In this document: positions 40,330 to 47,096 of the stretch, in pieces
How the letters are laid out: each line of letters opens with the position of its first letter
Position numbering within the stretch: the first letter of the stretch is position 1
NCBI GenBank assembly: GCA_025061115.1
Contig: JANZKC010000001.1
Span: forward strand, 704,001-768,000
From: Candidatus Culexmicrobium cathedralense
Lineage (GTDB): Archaea; Thermoproteota; Methanomethylicia; Culexarchaeales; Culexmicrobiaceae
Length of the DNA: 64,000 nucleotides
Reading direction: 5' to 3'
The notes under the pieces: model-generated
What the model saw: only the letters and a program-made list of their open reading frames with translations
What the model was told of the DNA's origin: nothing
Databases searched by the model: none
Program-made: the position numbers and the translations under genes

Positions 40330-41451
40330 TTGGGAATTATGTACTATGCTTTACGTCCAGATTCATTATTAGTTTGGAGGAATGAGGAAGTTAGAGATAG
40401 GCTTTCATGGTACTATGAAGTTATGAGAGATAGGAAGCCTGCGAAGTACTTAATTTGCAAGAGAATACCAGTGGAAGTCAACTTAATTGAGGCTAGCGAG
40501 AAGGAATTGTGGAGCGAGCATGCGCGAGCAGCCGAGAACTTCAGGAAAGTTTTCGACGATATAGTTGAGGGAAAGAAGGAGCTTAACAGCTTACCTAAGC
40601 CCAAAGTGAGCTTTCTGGAATTAAAAATTGAGCTGGTTAAGAGGATGCTAACCCACTGCAACTTCTGCGAGAGGAGATGTGGAGTTAATAGGGCTAAGGG
40701 GGAGAAGGGCTTCTGCAGATTAAACTCCAAATCCTACGTGACATCATGGTTCCACCACTGGGGAGAAGAGGCGCCCCTAGTACCTAGCGGCACCATATTC
40801 TTCGGCTCATGCAACTTCAGATGTGCCTTCTGCCAAAACTACGACATAAGCCAGCTAAATCCATATGGAGGAATACAGGTTAATCCGGAGGAGCTTGCGA
40901 AAATCCAAGCAACATTGCGAAGGGAGGGCGTGAGGAACATCAATTACGTAGGGGGAGAGCCAACGCCAAATCTCCATACCATAATTGAGTCCCTGCGCTA
41001 TCTCGACGTAAATGTCCCCCTACTCTGGAACAGCAACATGTACTGCAGCGTGGAAACGGTAACCATACTTTTAGAGGTAATAGACATTGCTCTTCCAGAC
41101 TTCAAGTACGGCGATAACTCCTGTGCCAAGCGCCTATCAGCCGTAGACAACTACTTCGAAGTTGTTTCTAGAAATCACAAGATGATGCACGACTACGGAA
41201 TAGACATGATAATCAGGCACCTAGTAATGCCAAATCACGTAGAGTGCTGCACCAAACCGATTTTGAAGTGGATAGCTGAAAACCTTCCAAGAGCGCTGGT
41301 CAACATCATGGGGCAGTATAGGCCTGAATACCTAGTTGCATGGGAGCCGGAAAGATATCCAGACATAGCGAGAAGGCCAACGCGCGAGGAAATGGAGCTT
41401 TCCTTTAAATACGCTGACGAGCTTGGAATATGCTATAAGCCAGTTTCTTAA
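40330..41451 (+). CDS. Radical SAM protein, PflX/COG1313-type
   Basis: CNFCERRCGVNR, HWGEE, SGTIFF, CNFRCAFCQN, GGEPT, DFKYG and IRHLVMP. Confidence 0.88.
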   Translation: MGIMYYALRPDSLLVWRNEEVRDRLSWYYEVMRDRKPAKYLICKRIPVEVNLIEASEKELWSEHARAAENFRKVFDDIVEGKKELNSLPKPKVSFLELKIELVKRMLTHCNFCERRCGVNRAKGEKGFCRLNSKSYVTSWFHHWGEEAPLVPSGTIFFGSCNFRCAFCQNYDISQLNPYGGIQVNPEELAKIQATLRREGVRNINYVGGEPTPNLHTIIESLRYLDVNVPLLWNSNMYCSVETVTILLEVIDIALPDFKYGDNSCAKRLSAVDNYFEVVSRNHKMMHDYGIDMIIRHLVMPNHVECCTKPILKWIAENLPRALVNIMGQYRPEYLVAWEPERYPDIARRPTREEMELSFKYADELGICYKPVS

Positions 41452-42035
41452 ATTCTTAGAATTTCAAATGCCAATTTCTCGCTTGAATCCGGAAGGCATG
41501 TCCCCTCACATGAGAAAGCTAGCAATTTCGGCTTTAACTGGCAGAGCCTATTCTCTCTAACCCAGAAAATTGCGTTGGACAACTTTGCAACTACATGATG
41601 AAAGTATGGTAGGGGGCGCCAGCGCCCTCTAATGTAAGTGCATTTAATTGGGGCGACTAAAATCAACCTGTCAACGCCGCAGGAAAATGCGATTGTTGTA
41701 AGAACCTTAAGCTCTCTAAAAACTAGTCTAGACATTGCAGCCCACCTAGCTTTAACCGCATACCCCCTAGCGATTGGAGGAAAGCGCCTTGACATTGAAA
41801 GGTATCGGCGGAAGGCATTATAAAAAATGCATTTAACCTTTGAGAAAACGCTTGATAAACTGTACAAGTAGCTTATTGAGGGCTCGACAACTTCCAGGAT
41901 GAAGGCATCCTCCCCAGCCATGGCGAATGGAGGGCTGTCAACTATTAGTAAGCTGGGCTTCCATTTGCAGGCCAATGCTCCAACTACCCTCTCGAGCTTT
42001 GAGCCATACATCGTCACAACTTTCCAGCTGTTCAA
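41448..42035 (-). CDS. Putative inactive RecA-fold (RadB-like) protein
   Basis: Element order resembles RadB (VVTMYG, CIFYNAF at Walker B, RELKVLTTIA..LILVA, RPLPYFHHVVAKLSNAIFWV) but there is no GxxxxGK; follows RadA and SWIM genes. Confidence 0.5.
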   Translation of the reverse strand: MNSWKVVTMYGSKLERVVGALACKWKPSLLIVDSPPFAMAGEDAFILEVVEPSISYLYSLSSVFSKVKCIFYNAFRRYLSMSRRFPPIARGYAVKARWAAMSRLVFRELKVLTTIAFSCGVDRLILVAPIKCTYIRGRWRPLPYFHHVVAKLSNAIFWVRENRLCQLKPKLLAFSCEGTCLPDSSEKLAFEILRI

Positions 42036-42057
42036 CTCAATTTGACACTTGAGCGCG

Positions 42058-42453
42058 TCAGAGATCCAGGAAGTCGTAAATGCTCCTCTCCTTAATCATC
42101 CTCCAGAGAATTACGCTTCCAACATGCGTGCATGTCTGCTTCATCCTACTTGAGGCAAACAGCTTCTTAGGGTCATAGCAGGTGCAGTTATACAGCCTTC
42201 CTCTCGGGTGGAAGGTAACTATGTAGAATGCCTCCCGATCCCCTAAGCTCGCTCTACCTCGCACTATCCACATATTTGGTTTGGGCGCTGGAGATACATC
42301 GATCAATCTGAGCTTGCAGCGGTAAAACCAGGACTTGGGCTTGCCGCTAAACCTCATTTTAAACCTCTTAAGCGCAGCTCTAAGCTGGCCGGCTGAAATG
42401 CCTAGCTTAACCAGCAATGCGATGTTCTTCAAATCTCTATTTTTATAGCACAT
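42058..42453 (-). CDS. SWIM zinc-finger protein
   Basis: YIVT...YNCTC-x15-CTHV; probable ATG at 42453 overlapping the RadA-paralog stop by 11 nt. Confidence 0.85.
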   Translation of the reverse strand: MCYKNRDLKNIALLVKLGISAGQLRAALKRFKMRFSGKPKSWFYRCKLRLIDVSPAPKPNMWIVRGRASLGDREAFYIVTFHPRGRLYNCTCYDPKKLFASSRMKQTCTHVGSVILWRMIKERSIYDFLDL

Positions 42454-43426
42454 CGACAAGCCCCTTATCTGAAATCCCAAATATCGCGAATGATCCCCTT
42501 TCAAGGTAGGGGCTATCCTCCACCACTACTTTTCTAACTAGGATGCGCTCACGCTTCGAATGGTGAGGAGCCATGAATAGCCTATGGGTTGTGCCGTGAG
42601 CCACCACATGGCCTCCTGCAGCAGTAACTCCGCCTCCAGCCACCGGCCTAGCCACTACATGATTTGTCGCGATGACATAGACATTATACATCATCGCCAC
42701 CCTAAGTAGGAAGTTAAGCATGTAGTTGAGAGTTTGCTGCCTAGCTACCAGCATCTCCCTACCCCTATACTCTGCTCTAACGTGGGAGATTAAGCTGTCA
42801 ACAATCACCAGCTTAACTCCCTCCTCCTCAATGCACTTTGGAAGCATCGTTCTTATGCAGTCTATCTGCTCATCAACGTTCATTGGCTGAAATAGCAGGA
42901 CTCCAGATAGTGGATCTTCAATGCCGAATTGCTCTCCAATCTTCGCAATTCTACCTTCAGAAAAGGTGCCTTCAGTATCTATGTAGAAAGCCTTTCCGTC
43001 GGCGCCGCCCCTATTCAATGTCAACTGAACAGTAGTTGAAAGCTGAAAGCACAATTGAGACTTCCCAGTTCCATACTCCCCCACAACCTCATAGATGCAT
43101 CGGGGCTCCAAGCCTCCTCCCAAAAGCTGATCTATTGACTTGACGCCAGTGGTTAATCTTGGAAGCTCGCTGCGCATGGAAGCATATTCTGAAGCTCTAA
43201 TAACCTTCTGCGGCCTAAATGCCTGTCTCACTCTCACTAGAGCCCTATTTATCCTCAAATAATCATCCGCGTCAATGTACATCAGTAGCTCGTCAAGCCC
43301 ATATAACGCCAACTGCCTTGGAGTTAAAATTCCAGCCTTCCGCAACTTCTCCGCAGTTGCAGGCCCCACCCCAGGAATGTCTTCAAGCTCCTTAAAAACC
43401 CCGTCATCAAAATCCACCACCTTCAA
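42443..43426 (-). CDS. Full-length RadA/Rad51 paralog
   Basis: HhH LEDIPGVGPATAEKL, GEYGTGKSQ, YIDTEGTF, LVIVDS and RAEY.GRE.L..RQQ.LN; FxxA replaced by VIRA, TNQ by TNH, L2 shortened. Confidence 0.9.
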   Translation of the reverse strand: MKVVDFDDGVFKELEDIPGVGPATAEKLRKAGILTPRQLALYGLDELLMYIDADDYLRINRALVRVRQAFRPQKVIRASEYASMRSELPRLTTGVKSIDQLLGGGLEPRCIYEVVGEYGTGKSQLCFQLSTTVQLTLNRGGADGKAFYIDTEGTFSEGRIAKIGEQFGIEDPLSGVLLFQPMNVDEQIDCIRTMLPKCIEEEGVKLVIVDSLISHVRAEYRGREMLVARQQTLNYMLNFLLRVAMMYNVYVIATNHVVARPVAGGGVTAAGGHVVAHGTTHRLFMAPHHSKRERILVRKVVVEDSPYLERGSFAIFGISDKGLVDVL

Positions 43427-43763
43427 TCACCCCCAAAACCAGCTTTTTCAAAAAATTAAGGTGAAGGATGACCTTGTCAAGCTCAGAAACTAAATCCTCA
43501 AGGGAGCTGCGGGAAGAGATGGAAGACAGGTCTTTAAGGGCTTGAATCAAGGAACTCACTTTAAATTTATCATAATGCTCCTCGAAGAGAAGCTTACCTC
43601 CACCCCTACCTACTTCAGATCGCTTATGCACAAGAATTAGCTCGCGCCTGACACCCCCACTTCTCATCAACCTGTAGTTAGCTATTATGAGCCCCTTTGG
43701 GGAAGCCATAACCACGTGGCTAAAGCCCCTTCCATCCCTATGCCATCTAATCCAACTACTCAA
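43407..43763 (-). CDS. Small basic hypothetical protein (beta-rich N-terminus, helical C-terminus)
   Basis: Overlaps both neighbours; TTG at 43763 preceded by GAGGTG. Confidence 0.6.
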   Translation of the reverse strand: MSSWIRWHRDGRGFSHVVMASPKGLIIANYRLMRSGGVRRELILVHKRSEVGRGGGKLLFEEHYDKFKVSSLIQALKDLSSISSRSSLEDLVSELDKVILHLNFLKKLVLGVIEGGGF

Positions 43764-45105
43764 AAACGCCACCTCTAAAGCTCGAATACTCATTTAATGC
43801 TGCTATGCCAGACGGCGTAATTCTAAAGTAGTATTTTCCATCCCTCCCAACGACGTCTGTAATAAAGCCGTAGGCAGAGAGCACTCCAATCATGCGTTGC
43901 GCTTCCTCGCTGCTTAAACCTAAAACGCCTACAGCGTATCCCATGATCGTATCTCGGTCGGCGGCTCCCTGAAGTAAGAATGAAAGTATTTGCGAAGCGA
44001 AGTCCGCCGCTCCCCTAAATATTTTCTGAAGAACAGCTCCTACCTTCGGCTTAGCAGGCTTGATCTTTTCTTCAATTGAAACTTGAACCTCTGGAAGCTC
44101 CTTAAACCTGAGTTCAGCGATCTTAACTTTACCATCGTGGAAAACGAGGAAGGAATCCCTTGAAATGCAAGTTACATGCTCCCATCGGAAGGTAGTTGTG
44201 GGAAAGACTGCTGATAGAGCTTCAAACTCCTCCCTTGAGCGTGGAAGGCTGGAGAAGGCACATTGAAGATCTAGTCTAGCTCTAACTGCAAGTAGTAGTG
44301 GGCTCCTACATGATAGAACTGCCAATCCACTCCTCGACCGCCTTAAAGTGTTCAGGGTGAACAGCGTTCGCTCAAAAGCTAAAGCATACTCCTCCCGCAA
44401 AGCCCTCATGAGGCCCGGCATCAGCAGATCTGACTCCTCAACCACCATTACCATGTCGCTCTCATCGGAGAATTTCAAGAGAAGTAATGTTGAAGCTAAA
44501 ACCCTAAATTCCCTAGGCAAGTGATGGACATCAATTACGAGTAGAGGCGCATCCGCGGAGCTTAACTCCATGGAGCCGCTAAACGATGATCCAATTCGCC
44601 CATACGTCAAGTTGTCGAGAAGTCTTAGAAGCCTATAGCTAAATGGCCTGCTCGACGCAATTTGAGATTGCGACTCTACTTCTAGAATTACATCCTCCAC
44701 GCTTGGCTCATAAACTCCTCTAGCTATAAGGCGAGCTAGGGCTTGCTGCAAAAGTCTAGCCGAGGACTCGCTTATGTGAAAGCTCAACTTGAAAGCTTCA
44801 GCAATTTCGAAAGCTCTAATGTATGGGTCGGAGAGGGACAAGTCGAAGGGAGCGATGGAAGCATTAAATCCAAGGCGAAGCACTTTGCAATTATTGAAGA
44901 AGAAGCTTAAAGCTGAATACGCTCCATAAGCGTCAATCACCATGACGCGGCTCCAATCAAGCACACCCAGCACTGAGGCATTAATTTTAACTCTATCACC
45001 AATGGGGCCAAAAGTGCCTATAATGCACTTGCCAACATGAAAACCTGAGAGAATTGACCTCAAATCAACTCTTTCAAGAAACCTAGGAATAACCACCAAG
45101 GCCAA
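43756..45105 (-). CDS. Degenerate HerA/VirB4/FtsK-superfamily ATPase with C-terminal winged helix
   Basis: VMVIDAYGAY, IAPFD, PSVEDV, LVIDVHHLP, MVVEESD and LRRSRSGLAVLSCRSP occur in HerA order; Walker A eroded (GTFGPIGDRVK); wHTH LSAYGFI...YFRITPSG. Confidence 0.7.
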   Translation of the reverse strand: MALVVIPRFLERVDLRSILSGFHVGKCIIGTFGPIGDRVKINASVLGVLDWSRVMVIDAYGAYSALSFFFNNCKVLRLGFNASIAPFDLSLSDPYIRAFEIAEAFKLSFHISESSARLLQQALARLIARGVYEPSVEDVILEVESQSQIASSRPFSYRLLRLLDNLTYGRIGSSFSGSMELSSADAPLLVIDVHHLPREFRVLASTLLLLKFSDESDMVMVVEESDLLMPGLMRALREEYALAFERTLFTLNTLRRSRSGLAVLSCRSPLLLAVRARLDLQCAFSSLPRSREEFEALSAVFPTTTFRWEHVTCISRDSFLVFHDGKVKIAELRFKELPEVQVSIEEKIKPAKPKVGAVLQKIFRGAADFASQILSFLLQGAADRDTIMGYAVGVLGLSSEEAQRMIGVLSAYGFITDVVGRDGKYYFRITPSGIAALNEYSSFRGGVFE

Positions 45106-45496
45106 CCAACCTCCAAATGCAAGTGATTTTCATCAAAATCGAAATTGCTATCAAAGGCGCGGCGGAAGCATAAGCCCCACTAAGTAGGAACCCGCATGTA
45201 ACCGCATCAATTAAGAAGGAGCAGAGTAGAAGCCTTTTCACTTGCCTTACAGCTCGTGGAGGAAAAGGCAAGGAAAGCTTCCTAATATCGAATAGAGCTT
45301 TCAACTCAGGAGATGGAAATACCACTCCATCCCGCTTCTGAGCATAATTACTTTGTAAAAGCACATTCAACGCATCATCCAACCCCTCACTTGAAATTAT
45401 AAATGATGGGAGCATCCCCCTAACAAGTAAAGCTATGGAAAGAGACTCTACATCCTCTCTTTGACAAATATCACCAGCTTTACCCCTGAAAATCAA
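45083..45496 (-). CDS. Hypothetical protein with C-terminal TM hairpin
   Basis: Two C-terminal hydrophobic helices; overlaps both neighbours. Confidence 0.6.
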   Translation of the reverse strand: MIFRGKAGDICQREDVESLSIALLVRGMLPSFIISSEGLDDALNVLLQSNYAQKRDGVVFPSPELKALFDIRKLSLPFPPRAVRQVKRLLLCSFLIDAVTCGFLLSGAYASAAPLIAISILMKITCIWRLVGLGGYS

Positions 45497-46074
45497 AGCT
45501 CAACACCTCGAAAACTAGCCGTTAGTAGAGCGTTCACAAGCTCTTTACCTTCCAAAATCCTAACCTCATTGGCAGGTATGGCCGTGGCCAGCGAGTTTAG
45601 AATGCCAGTTATTATCGATACTGCTTCATCTTTACCTTTAATAGACGATGATGTGCGTGGGCAAAGGAGGTATAGATCTCCATGCGCCTTACTCTTTACA
45701 TAGATGAGCGAGTAATCAACTGGAATGCTCTGTAAAAGCCTTTTTAATAATTCTTCATCTTGAACCTCGCGAAAAGCTACAGCTCCGGAAACTGAAAATC
45801 CCCCTAAACCTACTGAGGAAAGAGCAACATAGCCGAGCACGGCCAACCTCATACTGATGTCAAAAATTGCTTTTTGGAGGTCTCTCACCTTTATTTTCTT
45901 GAAAATTATAGTTTTATGGATGTTATACTTCTTAACTTTATGCTTTTTACTTCTATTTTTAAATTTTTTAATTAAATAATAAGCAAGGATAAATAGTAGC
46001 AGTGTGAAGGCGATGAGGGGCAAGTTTGCTACAAGCAAGATTATTGAAAGCAGCACAGCCACGCTGCCAAGCAC
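45493..46074 (-). CDS. Hypothetical N-terminally membrane-anchored protein
   Basis: About 35 hydrophobic N-terminal residues, a Lys-rich stop-transfer stretch and an alpha/beta domain ending RILEGKEL. Confidence 0.65.
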   Translation of the reverse strand: MLGSVAVLLSIILLVANLPLIAFTLLLFILAYYLIKKFKNRSKKHKVKKYNIHKTIIFKKIKVRDLQKAIFDISMRLAVLGYVALSSVGLGGFSVSGAVAFREVQDEELLKRLLQSIPVDYSLIYVKSKAHGDLYLLCPRTSSSIKGKDEAVSIITGILNSLATAIPANEVRILEGKELVNALLTASFRGVEL

Positions 46075-46123
46075 GCCTAGACCCCAGCCTAAAGGGGGGC
46101 GATGTAGAAGTTAAGCATGCTTC

Positions 46124-46165
46124 AGCTGTTCGCCGAATAGCTAACGTTCGATGAGAAGCGAACAG
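46124..46165. promoter_or_regulatory. Putative operator in the divergent promoter region
   Basis: AGCTGTTCG-C-CGAATAGCT near-palindrome (8/9) at 46124-46142, plus a further half-site GCGAACAG at 46158-46165. Confidence 0.4.
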
Positions 46166-46876
46166 TTAATTGCCAGTGAAATTAGTTATTTGATTGAAAA
46201 GGAAGCTGGTGGAAAGTTGAATAGTAGCATAGAGTTGAAAGCCGAGGAACTAAGGGTATTAGCGGATAAGACAAGGCTGAAAATACTTGCATTGCTTAAG
46301 GAGCGGAGAGAACTCAGTTTAAATGAAATTTCAAATTTAACTGGAAAAACTAAGTCTACTATTTCAGATCACTTGAAGCTTCTGATGAAAGCAGGATTTA
46401 TAGATAGAAGAGGAGTTGATAGAGGCTACTTATACTTCTTGACTGAGAAGGGGGAGGGAGTTCTTCCACTAATAGAAGATAAGCCGTACAAGATTGAGGC
46501 TGTGGAGGAAGGCATGGGGAAATCTGAAGCTTATGGTTTTTTGGCTGATGCCGAGGAATGGCTGGAGAAGGTTAGCGGCGGCAGGAGACATGTGATACCC
46601 TCAATCATTCTTGGGCTTTCAATGATCGCATTTGGGTACATGCCGTTATCCGCAGTGGCAACGTCATTGGCTTTAGGGCTGATCTTAGGGTTATTAAACG
46701 TTGGCGGTCACGAATTCATCGAAAGCTCGCTTTTATACGCGATCTTCGCTACCCTATCAGCCATTTTAAGGGAGGGAAATCTCGGCATGATACTCACGAT
46801 TCTACCCTCCCTCGCAATATTCATTTTAGTCGGTGGAATTGCGTGGATGGGGGTTAAACTCATAATTCAGAAGTAA
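46151..46876 (+). CDS. ArsR-family wHTH regulator with C-terminal TM domain
   Basis: LADKTRLKILALL, KSTISDHLKLLMKAGFI and YFLTEKG, then about 4 TM helices; true start may be TTG near 46217. Confidence 0.85.
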   Translation: MRSEQLIASEISYLIEKEAGGKLNSSIELKAEELRVLADKTRLKILALLKERRELSLNEISNLTGKTKSTISDHLKLLMKAGFIDRRGVDRGYLYFLTEKGEGVLPLIEDKPYKIEAVEEGMGKSEAYGFLADAEEWLEKVSGGRRHVIPSIILGLSMIAFGYMPLSAVATSLALGLILGLLNVGGHEFIESSLLYAIFATLSAILREGNLGMILTILPSLAIFILVGGIAWMGVKLIIQK

Positions 46877-46898: not shown

Positions 46899-47096
46899 GT
46901 GGTTAGAATATGTCCGGAATGCGGCGGAGAAATGATCTTTGACAGGAGCAGGTATGCTTATGTCTGTAGAACTTGCGGCTTAACCCTAACTAGATTTGAG
47001 CTGGACAAGTACAGGGATAGGAAGGGCTCTAGGAAGGAAGATGAAGATTCTTGGAAGAAGGAATACCTGAAGTGGTGGTTAAGCTCTAAAAAGTAA
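46899..47096 (+). CDS. Small zinc-ribbon protein
   Basis: CPECGG...VCRTCG with C-terminal YLKWW. Confidence 0.75.
   Translation: MVRICPECGGEMIFDRSRYAYVCRTCGLTLTRFELDKYRDRKGSRKEDEDSWKKEYLKWWLSSKK

Follow-up and report, generated by a model that had tools for sequence, protein, structure and literature searches.

Archaeal recombination mediators are poorly understood, and the origin of the eukaryotic mediators built from Rad51 paralogues and SWS1 proteins is open. The eukaryotic Shu complexes comprise Csm2-Psy3-Shu1-Shu2 in yeast, SWS1-SWSAP1 in humans and SWS-1/RIP-1/RFS-1 in Caenorhabditis elegans. According to PMC5727457, the SWIM protein Shu2 of yeast binds Shu1, Psy3 and Csm2, which are Rad51-like, and Shu2 orthologues reach "from archaea to humans", a statement that this source credits to Godin et al. 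2015; SWS1-like genes of archaea may therefore have been published before, taken by themselves. The C. elegans complex is reported to be trimeric, with RFS-1 (an active ATPase), RIP-1 and SWS-1 as subunits, to combine one active paralogue, one degenerate paralogue and SWS-1, and to remodel RAD-51 filaments (10.1101/2025.11.17.685403). The motif given for SWS1/Shu2 proteins is CXC...Xn...CXHXXA (PMC6316741). Here, we describe a conserved gene block in a 64,000-nucleotide stretch of the genome of Candidatus Culexmicrobium cathedralense (contig JANZKC010000001.1, positions 704,001 to 768,000; hereafter the window), in which genes for a RadA paralogue and a SWIM protein are joined to a gene for an inactivated P-loop protein related to the DNA-import ATPase CedD.

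CedD is described as a HerA-FtsK ATPase bound to the membrane, indispensable to Sulfolobales for importing DNA, and has been proposed as a VirD4-like coupling protein for incoming DNA; some of its orthologues are said to have no membrane segment of their own (PMC11823120, PMC11868833). The CedA/TedA channel has 6–7 membrane helices and is encoded with an ATPase (PMC9905601). We read the block, with moderate confidence, as a Shu-like RadA-mediator trio tied to a membrane-anchored, ATPase-dead CedD-like scaffold. The components belong to known superfamilies; new are the way in which their genes are combined, the presence of a dead CedD-like partner and the tie to the membrane. A preliminary description of this DNA had cited no described operon as known to join an ATPase module to a recombination module of this kind, and our full-text literature search (supplements not covered) found no account of the operon either. 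The features of the block are listed below, with lengths in amino acids (aa).

g1: 45493–46074, minus strand; 193 aa; N-terminal hydrophobic anchor, basic stretch and putative cytoplasmic domain of ~130 aa
g2: 45083–45496, minus strand; 137 aa; small protein with a two-helix hydrophobic hairpin at the C-terminus
g3: 43756–45105, minus strand; 449 aa; HerA/CedD-type P-loop domain with eroded Walker A, and C-terminal winged helix
g4: 43407–43793, minus strand; 128 aa; small basic protein, no fold match
g5: 42443–43426, minus strand; 327 aa; full-length RadA paralogue (HhH domain and ATPase core)
g6: 42058–42504, minus strand; 148 aa; SWIM zinc-finger protein
g7: 41448–42035, minus strand; 195 aa; protein read as a degenerate RecA core without Walker A
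g8: 46151–46876, plus strand; 241 aa; ArsR/SmtB-type winged helix and C-terminal membrane domain, divergent from the operon
Candidate operator: 46129–46163, no strand; two TTCG...CGAA palindromes (46129–46137 and 46146–46163), overlapping the g8 start codon

Structure and conservation of the operon

The seven co-oriented minus-strand open reading frames (ORFs), g1 to g7, spanned 41448–46074. Neighbouring genes from g1 to g6 overlapped by 4, 23, 38, 20 and 62 nucleotides (nt) in turn, a 22-nt gap preceded g7, and the divergent genes g8 and g1 were 76 nt apart; the start codon of g6 possibly lies 17 codons further in. These coordinates agree with the layout given in the preliminary description, namely seven co-oriented genes, six overlapping and the last 22 nt away, with a head-to-head gene for an ArsR-type regulator with membrane segments. 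A Kyte-Doolittle scan placed hydrophobic stretches at residues 1–38 of g1, 86–134 of g2, and 148–186 and 208–241 of g8, in accord with the membrane features that had been claimed for g1 and g2, and found no hydrophobic membrane segment in g3 to g7. All eight genes were single-copy in the genome (1.98 Mb, 99.99% complete, 7.65% contamination), in which g5 alone had family members elsewhere. Among the eight proteins, only g5 and g8 had Pfam or NCBIfam matches; the other six (g1–g4, g6 and g7) matched no Pfam, NCBIfam, PADLOC or PHROG family, and g3, g6 and g7 as single sequences had no relatives in PDB.

To describe the distribution we use codes for families (f), genomes (G), loci (L) and proteins (P); f1–f9 lie within the class, and f22, f41, f48, f49, f54, f55 and f61 outside it. 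The trees and counts given here rest on related genomes, which are not independent of each other. A search with the g3 protein matched 23 of 41 relatives, and a 15-sequence g3 profile matched 82 of 401 genomes sampled across the phylum (E≤1e-5). Within the class, with the genome's own match excluded, g3 was found in 3/3 genomes of f1, 5/5 of f3, 4/4 of f4, 22/32 of f5, 1/2 of f6, 7/10 of f7, and the single genomes of f8 and f9 (1/1 each), and in 0/1 of f2. Full-length matches outside the class occurred in f22, f41, f48, f49 and f54. One close g3 homologue was labelled 'Candidatus Methanomethylicota archaeon' by its source.

A RadA-type gene adjoined full-length g3 in the same orientation at 14/14 loci of a first set. 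In a second set the count was 15/19, the misses (L074–L077) being weak partial g3-like matches, and all 20 of 20 further loci, together with L117 and L127, had the same arrangement. Operon-type RadA genes (183–257 bits) were present at the g3 locus in 21/21 genomes with g3 and in 0/4 without it (G005, G017, G019 and G023, of which G017 is only 62% complete). At the eight f1 and f3 loci of the first 14, both the order g1-g3-g4-g5-g6-g7 and the flanking genes were kept. In f4, f6 and f7 the flanks differed, whereas the order of a g1-like gene, g3, a small g4-like ORF, g5, g6 and a g7-like ORF was unchanged. Overall, gene order was kept in f1, f3 and f4–f9 and, outside the class and with other flanks, in f22, f41, f48, f49, f54, f55 and f61, where a divergent ArsR-type gene is followed by g1, g3, g4 and g5. 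The core thus consists of the regulator followed by g1-g3-g4-g5, usually with g6 and g7 after them, and occurs in many Methanomethylicia-like families and some other Thermoproteota. Because the adjacency persists across many families with different flanks, the block is a conserved unit and not a chance neighbourhood; the operon claimed earlier was in this way put to the test of neighbourhood conservation and held.

The g2 gene stands apart from this core. Among the 14 loci of the first set, a g2 orthologue was present only in the same genus (G001, 50% identity), and elsewhere g1 ran directly into g3, so g2 is a genus-specific insertion.

The RadA paralogue, the SWIM protein and the putative RecA-core protein

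The g5 protein matched Pfam Rad51 (PF08423) at 184.8 bits against a cut-off of 22, and also HHH_5. It was borderline on NF003301 (259.3 against a cut-off of 259) and under the cut-off on TIGR02236 (241.5 against 361.15 bits). Two stronger RadA genes of the same genome scored 321 and 310 bits on PF08423, and canonical RadA of at least 308 bits was present in 25/25 relatives searched, several of which have two, as does this genome. We built a maximum-likelihood tree of 46 rows (23 g5 proteins, 20 RadA-family genes of relatives and three of the genome itself), with a midpoint root only and without L005, a weak KaiC-like match. All 23 g5 rows grouped together (98/98 support), and this group was adjacent to one of the two formed by canonical RadA. 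This grouping and the Pfam match uphold the earlier assignment of g5 as a RadA paralogue.

The two canonical RadA genes of the genome lie outside the window, at C1:566450-567169 and C1:649690-650406 (L001 and L002). They fell into separate, well-supported tree groups, each spanning several families of the class, and both types were also carried by G002, G005, G012, G020 and G024.

At the alignment position that we take to be that of the FxxA polymerisation motif, the phenylalanine by which RadA monomers plug into each other was present in 18/18 canonical RadA proteins of the same genomes but in only 1/23 g5 proteins; in the other 22 it was replaced by V, I, L, A, T, M or Y. The Walker A and Walker B residues G121, K122 and D210 were invariant in the 23 sequences and L1 was kept, while L2 was four residues shorter in f1 and f3. 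Loss of the phenylalanine with retention of the Walker motifs suggests that g5 is an additional RadA paralogue that is probably ATPase-competent but unable to plug into an adjacent subunit in the usual way. Like g5 and g7, the RadB and aRadC group (KaiC-like) consists of extra RecA/RadA superfamily members beside the main recombinase. RadB and aRadC are not known to be full-length proteins with an HhH domain, whereas g5 keeps both that domain and full length, and it differs from other archaeal RadA paralogues in forming its own group next to one canonical RadA group. A RadB-like gene was located elsewhere in the genome (C1:787274, 74 bits).

The metal ligands of g6, C107-x-C109-x15-C125-x-H127, were invariant in 14/14 orthologues, which bears out its earlier identification as a SWIM protein. 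The motif continued as x-G-A in 7/14 and as x-G-S in 7/14, including the protein of the window. In the Atlas, g6 led to SWIM clusters with a score of 0.94 and 200–203 shared features, and its predicted model aligned to archaeal SWIM clusters at TM 0.72–0.73. The g6 SWIM family was found in 65/401 genomes and is thus wider than the operon, with longer stand-alone forms in f19 (18/23), f31 and f33.

In two f49 genomes, the SWIM gene was unlinked from g3–g5 and overlapped a KaiC-family gene of 264–265 aa (PF06745, ~180 bits); these pairs lie at L115:4694-5832 and L116:5260-6498. At L127 the SWIM gene preceded g5. At L063, outside the class, a 265-aa protein carried an N-terminal SWIM domain fused to a g7-like C-terminal part, of which the last 150 aa matched the g7 hidden Markov model (HMM) end to end (17–168 of 179; E 4.6e-5 in a two-sequence search, hhalign E 1e-3). 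The occurrence of SWIM genes beside g5 and g7, beside a KaiC gene and in one fusion indicates that the SWIM family travels repeatedly with RecA-superfamily proteins. A partnership of g6 with g5 and g7 is accordingly suggested on genetic grounds, by adjacency, by the L063 fusion and by the KaiC neighbour at L115 and L116.

SWIM relatives of ~180–260 aa were multi-copy in f19 and f33, where a genome had up to 6–7 matches, and some had in-frame stops (examples in G057, G202, G266 and G232; loci L118–L125). In the loci examined (L118–L125), these longer relatives had no RadA-type neighbour.

The g7 protein is fast-evolving, with 62% identity within the genus compared with 90% for g5. Proteins of 141–198 aa occupied the g7 position in f3, f4, f6 and f7, and those at this position in f5, f8 and f9 were related by sequence to other g7-position proteins. 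Aligned with hhalign, the g7 family matched the same-position set of other families over its full length (96.9%, E 1.6e-10), and that set matched the RadA core from Walker A to Walker B (86.8%, E 4.3e-6). Some proteins at the position show a Walker A region: L071 keeps GEAGAGKTT, and L068 has GEAGSGRST. Comparison of the g7-position set with one KaiC protein gave E 0.03, a PDB search with the g7 profile returned nothing useful, and the Atlas leads for g7 were Rad51/KaiC clusters (0.85–0.88, TM 0.49). We therefore read g7, by way of the intermediate profile, as a putative degenerate RecA-core protein without Walker A. The preliminary description had called it an inactive RadB-like protein; the degenerate RecA core is the likely reading, whereas the RadB-like identity lacks support.

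Small proteins encoded downstream of g5 in other families ended in a common C-terminal motif, NPW[LI]..L.RRG (L061:4062-4430, minus strand; L062:8817-9296, plus strand; L065:2708-3169, minus strand). One had a C2H2 zinc finger; in the other two, a coiled coil came after an N-terminus with weak likeness to MazE/AbrB. These proteins may thus share a docking peptide.

The composition of g5, g6 and g7 mirrors that of Shu complexes, in which a SWIM protein is combined with RadA/Rad51 paralogues, one with Walker motifs and one or more without, and for this reason we read the trio as a putative RadA mediator. The preliminary description mentioned neither this closest analogy, nor the genus-specific nature of g2, nor the lack of the SWIM gene in f5. 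The g6 motif CxC...CxH was followed by x-x-A in half of the orthologues and by x-x-S in the other half, compared with CXHXXA in the published motif, and on the operon side the genes of the partners adjoin each other, with one case, at L063, of a single chain. The trio also differs from Shu complexes: a PDB search with the g6 profile (E≤10) brought out no similarity of g6 beyond the motif, the active paralogue g5 keeps its N-terminal HhH domain, and the three genes are co-transcribed, as far as can be told from the genes, with one for a membrane-anchored dead CedD-like protein.

The CedD-like protein, its putative anchor and the regulator

A g3 profile search against 1.84 billion representative proteins returned 181 matches at E≤1e-3, of which 56 reached ≤1e-10 and 28 reached ≤1e-30. 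Among ten distant matches scanned, four contained the HerA central domain DUF87, and among ten compared with NCBIfam, CedD (NF053655) was the best family for eight, with three at 217–237 bits and none at the 600-bit cut-off; HerA models were far under their cut-offs even for active relatives of g3. The g3 protein itself matched no NCBIfam model at E≤0.1, CedD included. Compared with 11 CedD-like active proteins, however, it aligned over 297 columns (hhalign 99.6%, E 1.7e-23), its Walker A, G-x-F-G-x4-R, facing G-x-T-G-S-G-K-T in the active proteins. The Walker A lysine was absent in 15/15 aligned g3 proteins, and the acidic pair of Walker B was mostly kept. The last ~90 residues form a winged helix (PDB profile 2obp, E 0.026; HTH_45 in 1/15), and the PDB profile search also gave VirB4 4ag5 (E 0.089). 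Thus, the protein that had been described as an eroded HerA/VirB4-like ATPase with a winged helix does belong to the HerA/VirB4/CedD branch, lacks the lysine and has a winged helix at its C-terminus.

The same dead P-loop and winged helix recurred in long g3 relatives of 775–850 aa, in which N-terminal membrane segments and ~280 residues precede the g3-like part (hhalign 99.85%, E 1.4e-30, 412 columns). One of these long relatives, P0057, was absent from all genomes and metagenome contigs searched. Elsewhere, g3 was split into two adjacent ORFs, at L072:6111-7744 (G022), L138:6318-7726 (G168) and L142:6202-7585 (G363).

The anchor of g1 (residues 1–38) has a conserved N-P break. The g1 HMM matched residues 23–121 of P0046, just N-terminal of its HerA domain (E 1e-6), and the end of g1 aligned collinearly before the g3-like part of the unsplit relatives, weakly, with hhalign probabilities of 1.9% and 3.8%; a search of PDB with the g1 profile gave nothing useful. 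This collinear placement in the long forms and in P0046 is suggestive of g1 being the detached N-terminal part of a CedD/VirB4-like protein, in which case g1 and g3 are probably one split membrane-anchored protein. The genus-specific g2 had no family match in Pfam, NCBIfam, PADLOC or PHROG.

A g4 gene lay between g3 and g5 in nearly every locus (aligned across 12 loci and HMM-detected in further ones), and the protein had no family or PDB match and no match to the long g3 relatives. The g8 protein matched Pfam HTH_5 at residues 39–85 (51.8 bits against a cut-off of 22, E 7e-14) and stood just under the cut-off of NF033788 (54.2 against 55); its winged helix resembles ArsR and Csa3-type domains. 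Together with the hydrophobic segments at 148–186 and 208–241, which make up a C-terminal membrane domain of ~3–4 segments, this match bears out the membrane-linked ArsR-type regulator of the preliminary description. A divergent ArsR-type gene was present in 18 of the 20 further loci, the other two ending at contig ends, and in most loci of the first two sets. In the shared intergenic region, the TCG-N-CGAA core of the palindrome was invariant across five aligned loci of the same family, and the TTCG...CGAA palindromes are a plausible operator.

We compared the block with the described systems that contain proteins of the HerA superfamily. CedD/TedD proteins resemble g3 in lying on the same HerA-FtsK superfamily branch, the nearest active relatives of g3 scoring best against the CedD model, and probably in their association with the membrane, described as direct or via a partner protein (PMC11823120). 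They differ in that g3 has no Walker A lysine, has an added C-terminal winged helix, gives no match to the CedD model, is accompanied by neither CedB nor VirB4 in this genome and always adjoins a RadA paralogue, which the CedD-like or partial loci L074–L077 do not. The models of CedB (NF041017) and VirB4 (TIGR00929) had no match in this 99.99%-complete genome at E≤0.01, and the best score on the CedD model was 79.5 bits against a cut-off of 600. Within the block no protein resembled a 6–7-helix CedA-like channel, the maximum being ~4 hydrophobic segments; CedA was looked for in the block only. Judged by its gene content, the block is not a Ced/Ted locus, because it encodes no active motor and no channel and the genome is without CedB, CedD and VirB4; the preliminary description would have been refuted by a complete match to a described Ced/Ted or conjugative locus, and the block showed no such match. 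The HerA-NurA end-resection modules of thermophilic archaea also have a HerA-superfamily protein genetically tied to recombination genes. The block differs from them in having no nuclease partner, Mre11 or Rad50, and g3 has neither the N-terminal barrel domain nor the P-loop lysine.

Proposed function, alternatives and neighbouring genes

A Shu-like mediator docked on a dead CedD-like scaffold would be built from a six-gene core (g1, g3, g4, g5, g6 and g7), the genus-specific g2 and the divergent membrane-bound regulator g8, and would work in two halves. In the first half, g5, g6 and g7 would contact each other and, as a complex, bind, cap or remodel the filaments of canonical RadA in the cell. 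In the second half, g1 and g3 would form a non-motor scaffold located at the membrane, which holds DNA or a partner and recruits the trio. Here, g1 would supply the membrane anchor and probably also the N-terminal domain of the unsplit relatives, and g4 may be a small adaptor. The regulator g8, responding to a presumed inducing signal, would control both directions from the palindromes in the shared intergenic region.

Several observations weigh against this proposal. The ties of g6 to SWIM proteins do not extend to the Pfam SWIM model (PF04434), whose cut-off was not reached (best E 0.16, in 1/14 members), and the g6 profile matched 0 PDB chains at E≤10, leaving no sequence-level tie to yeast Shu2. 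For g7, direct comparison with the RadA profile was negative, so that the link runs solely via the intermediate profile, and the Atlas scores stayed below 0.9. The idea that g1 and g3 are a split gene rests on weak matches (the E of 1e-6 to one protein and the two low hhalign probabilities), and the two-ORF form of g3 at L072, L138 and L142 may reflect decay, a frameshift or an assembly error. Furthermore, the SWIM gene was found in 0/32 f5 genomes although 22/32 keep g3. The trio is therefore not obligatory for the core, and this absence shows, at the level of gene content, that g1, g3, g4 and g5 with a RecA-like protein can work without the SWIM gene.

Three other explanations were weighed. 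The first is the proposal of the preliminary description that a membrane-tethered platform receives incoming or damaged DNA: g1, g2 and g3 would be a working remnant of a Ced/Ted import system, resembling a coupling protein, that hands entering DNA to the paralogue complex. The homology to CedD makes this thinkable, as the nearest active relatives of g3 have their best match in CedD (217–237 bits for three of them), a protein described as essential for Sulfolobales import and proposed as a guide of incoming DNA (PMC11823120, PMC11868833); moreover, the regulator is membrane-bound, and the small proteins g1 and g2, which have hydrophobic hairpins, bear a loose resemblance to CedA1/CedA2 with their two helices (PMC9905601). 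We nevertheless consider it doubtful, since neither the 15 aligned g3 proteins nor the long relatives keep the Walker A lysine, so that no motor is encoded, no protein of the block has 6–7 membrane helices, g2 is confined to the genus, and the partner ATPases CedB and VirB4 (E≤0.01) and CedD (≤79.5 bits) are missing from the genome, in which CedA and Ted pilins were not searched for. A signalling role, in which g1, g3, g4 and g8 form a membrane sensor/regulator set that switches on the paralogue genes under envelope or DNA stress without acting on repair intermediates, the dead P-loop winged-helix protein serving as a co-regulator, appears less likely still. Pseudo-ATPases often serve as scaffolds or switches, g3 ends in a winged helix, g8 is a membrane-tied winged-helix regulator, and conserved palindromes lie in the divergent promoter region; however, g3 is predicted to be co-transcribed with its supposed targets and does not stand apart from them, and the translational coupling suggested by overlapping reading frames, together with the strict co-occurrence of g3 and g5 (21/21 against 0/4), fits subunits of one assembly better.

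The third explanation holds that the two halves are independent neighbours or that the block belongs to a mobile or defence island. HerA-type and RecA-type proteins are both found in defence systems and mobile elements, and SWIM relatives are multi-copy in some crenarchaeal genomes, with up to 6–7 matches per genome. This explanation is already disfavoured, and we regard it as very improbable: the adjacency of the genes outlasts changes of flank in many families, all genes are single-copy, and the identity of g3 falls with taxonomic distance, from 72% in the genus to ~50% in the family, ~42% in the order and ~25% in the class, which fits vertical descent. The GC content of the block (0.40–0.48) resembled that of its surroundings, and searches of PADLOC and of PHROG (six proteins for PHROG) gave no match in the block except the generic winged helix of g8. 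The flanks encode Maf, Thg1, a radical-SAM protein, a TFIIB-type zinc ribbon, a MoCF-biosynthesis domain protein, a GPN-loop GTPase and an ATP-grasp protein; no integrase or relaxase was found among them, as the preliminary description had said of these housekeeping genes. The operon is chromosomal and vertically inherited, not mobile or defence.

We return to the Shu-like mediator tied to a dead CedD-like scaffold. Its strict linkage to a dead, membrane-anchored protein of CedD type points to a second use, as scaffolds for recombination, of relic ATPases from DNA transfer, and the operon offers compact, linked candidates for mediators, namely an active paralogue without the normal filament plug, a decayed paralogue and a SWIM protein; five proteins annotated as hypothetical are now marked. 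A bolder extension, which we think rather unlikely, is that the Shu partnership of SWIM proteins and paralogues has a prokaryotic counterpart and that an ATPase-dead coupling protein of a DNA-import system derived from type IV secretion was domesticated as a membrane dock, feeding DNA that arrives or is held at the membrane into a dedicated RadA-loading complex under a membrane-bound transcription factor. If true, recombination mediators would be physically connected to the machinery of DNA transfer in a way not known before.

Other observations concern the surroundings of the block. The DNA sequencing runs containing the stretch are hydrothermal-vent and sediment metagenomes, and no RNA run was listed for it. 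No Rfam family or tRNA was found in 36–52 kb of the window, and a sigma-70 promoter and terminator scan was at chance (7 sites against 8.2 expected, and 6 against 6.7), the sigma-70 model not being applicable to archaea. The stop end of g7 overlaps that of the convergent radical-SAM gene (40330–41451) by 4 nt (41448–41451 of the window), and this gene is a conserved neighbour in f1 and f3. A 65-aa TFIIB-type zinc-ribbon protein (46899–47096, plus strand) starts 22 nt downstream of g8. We considered its gene as that of a TFB3-like partner and dropped it, because it was present at eight loci of f1 and f3 in which the whole flank is syntenic and at no other loci. The C-terminus of this protein, EYLKWWLSSKK, is nearly invariant.

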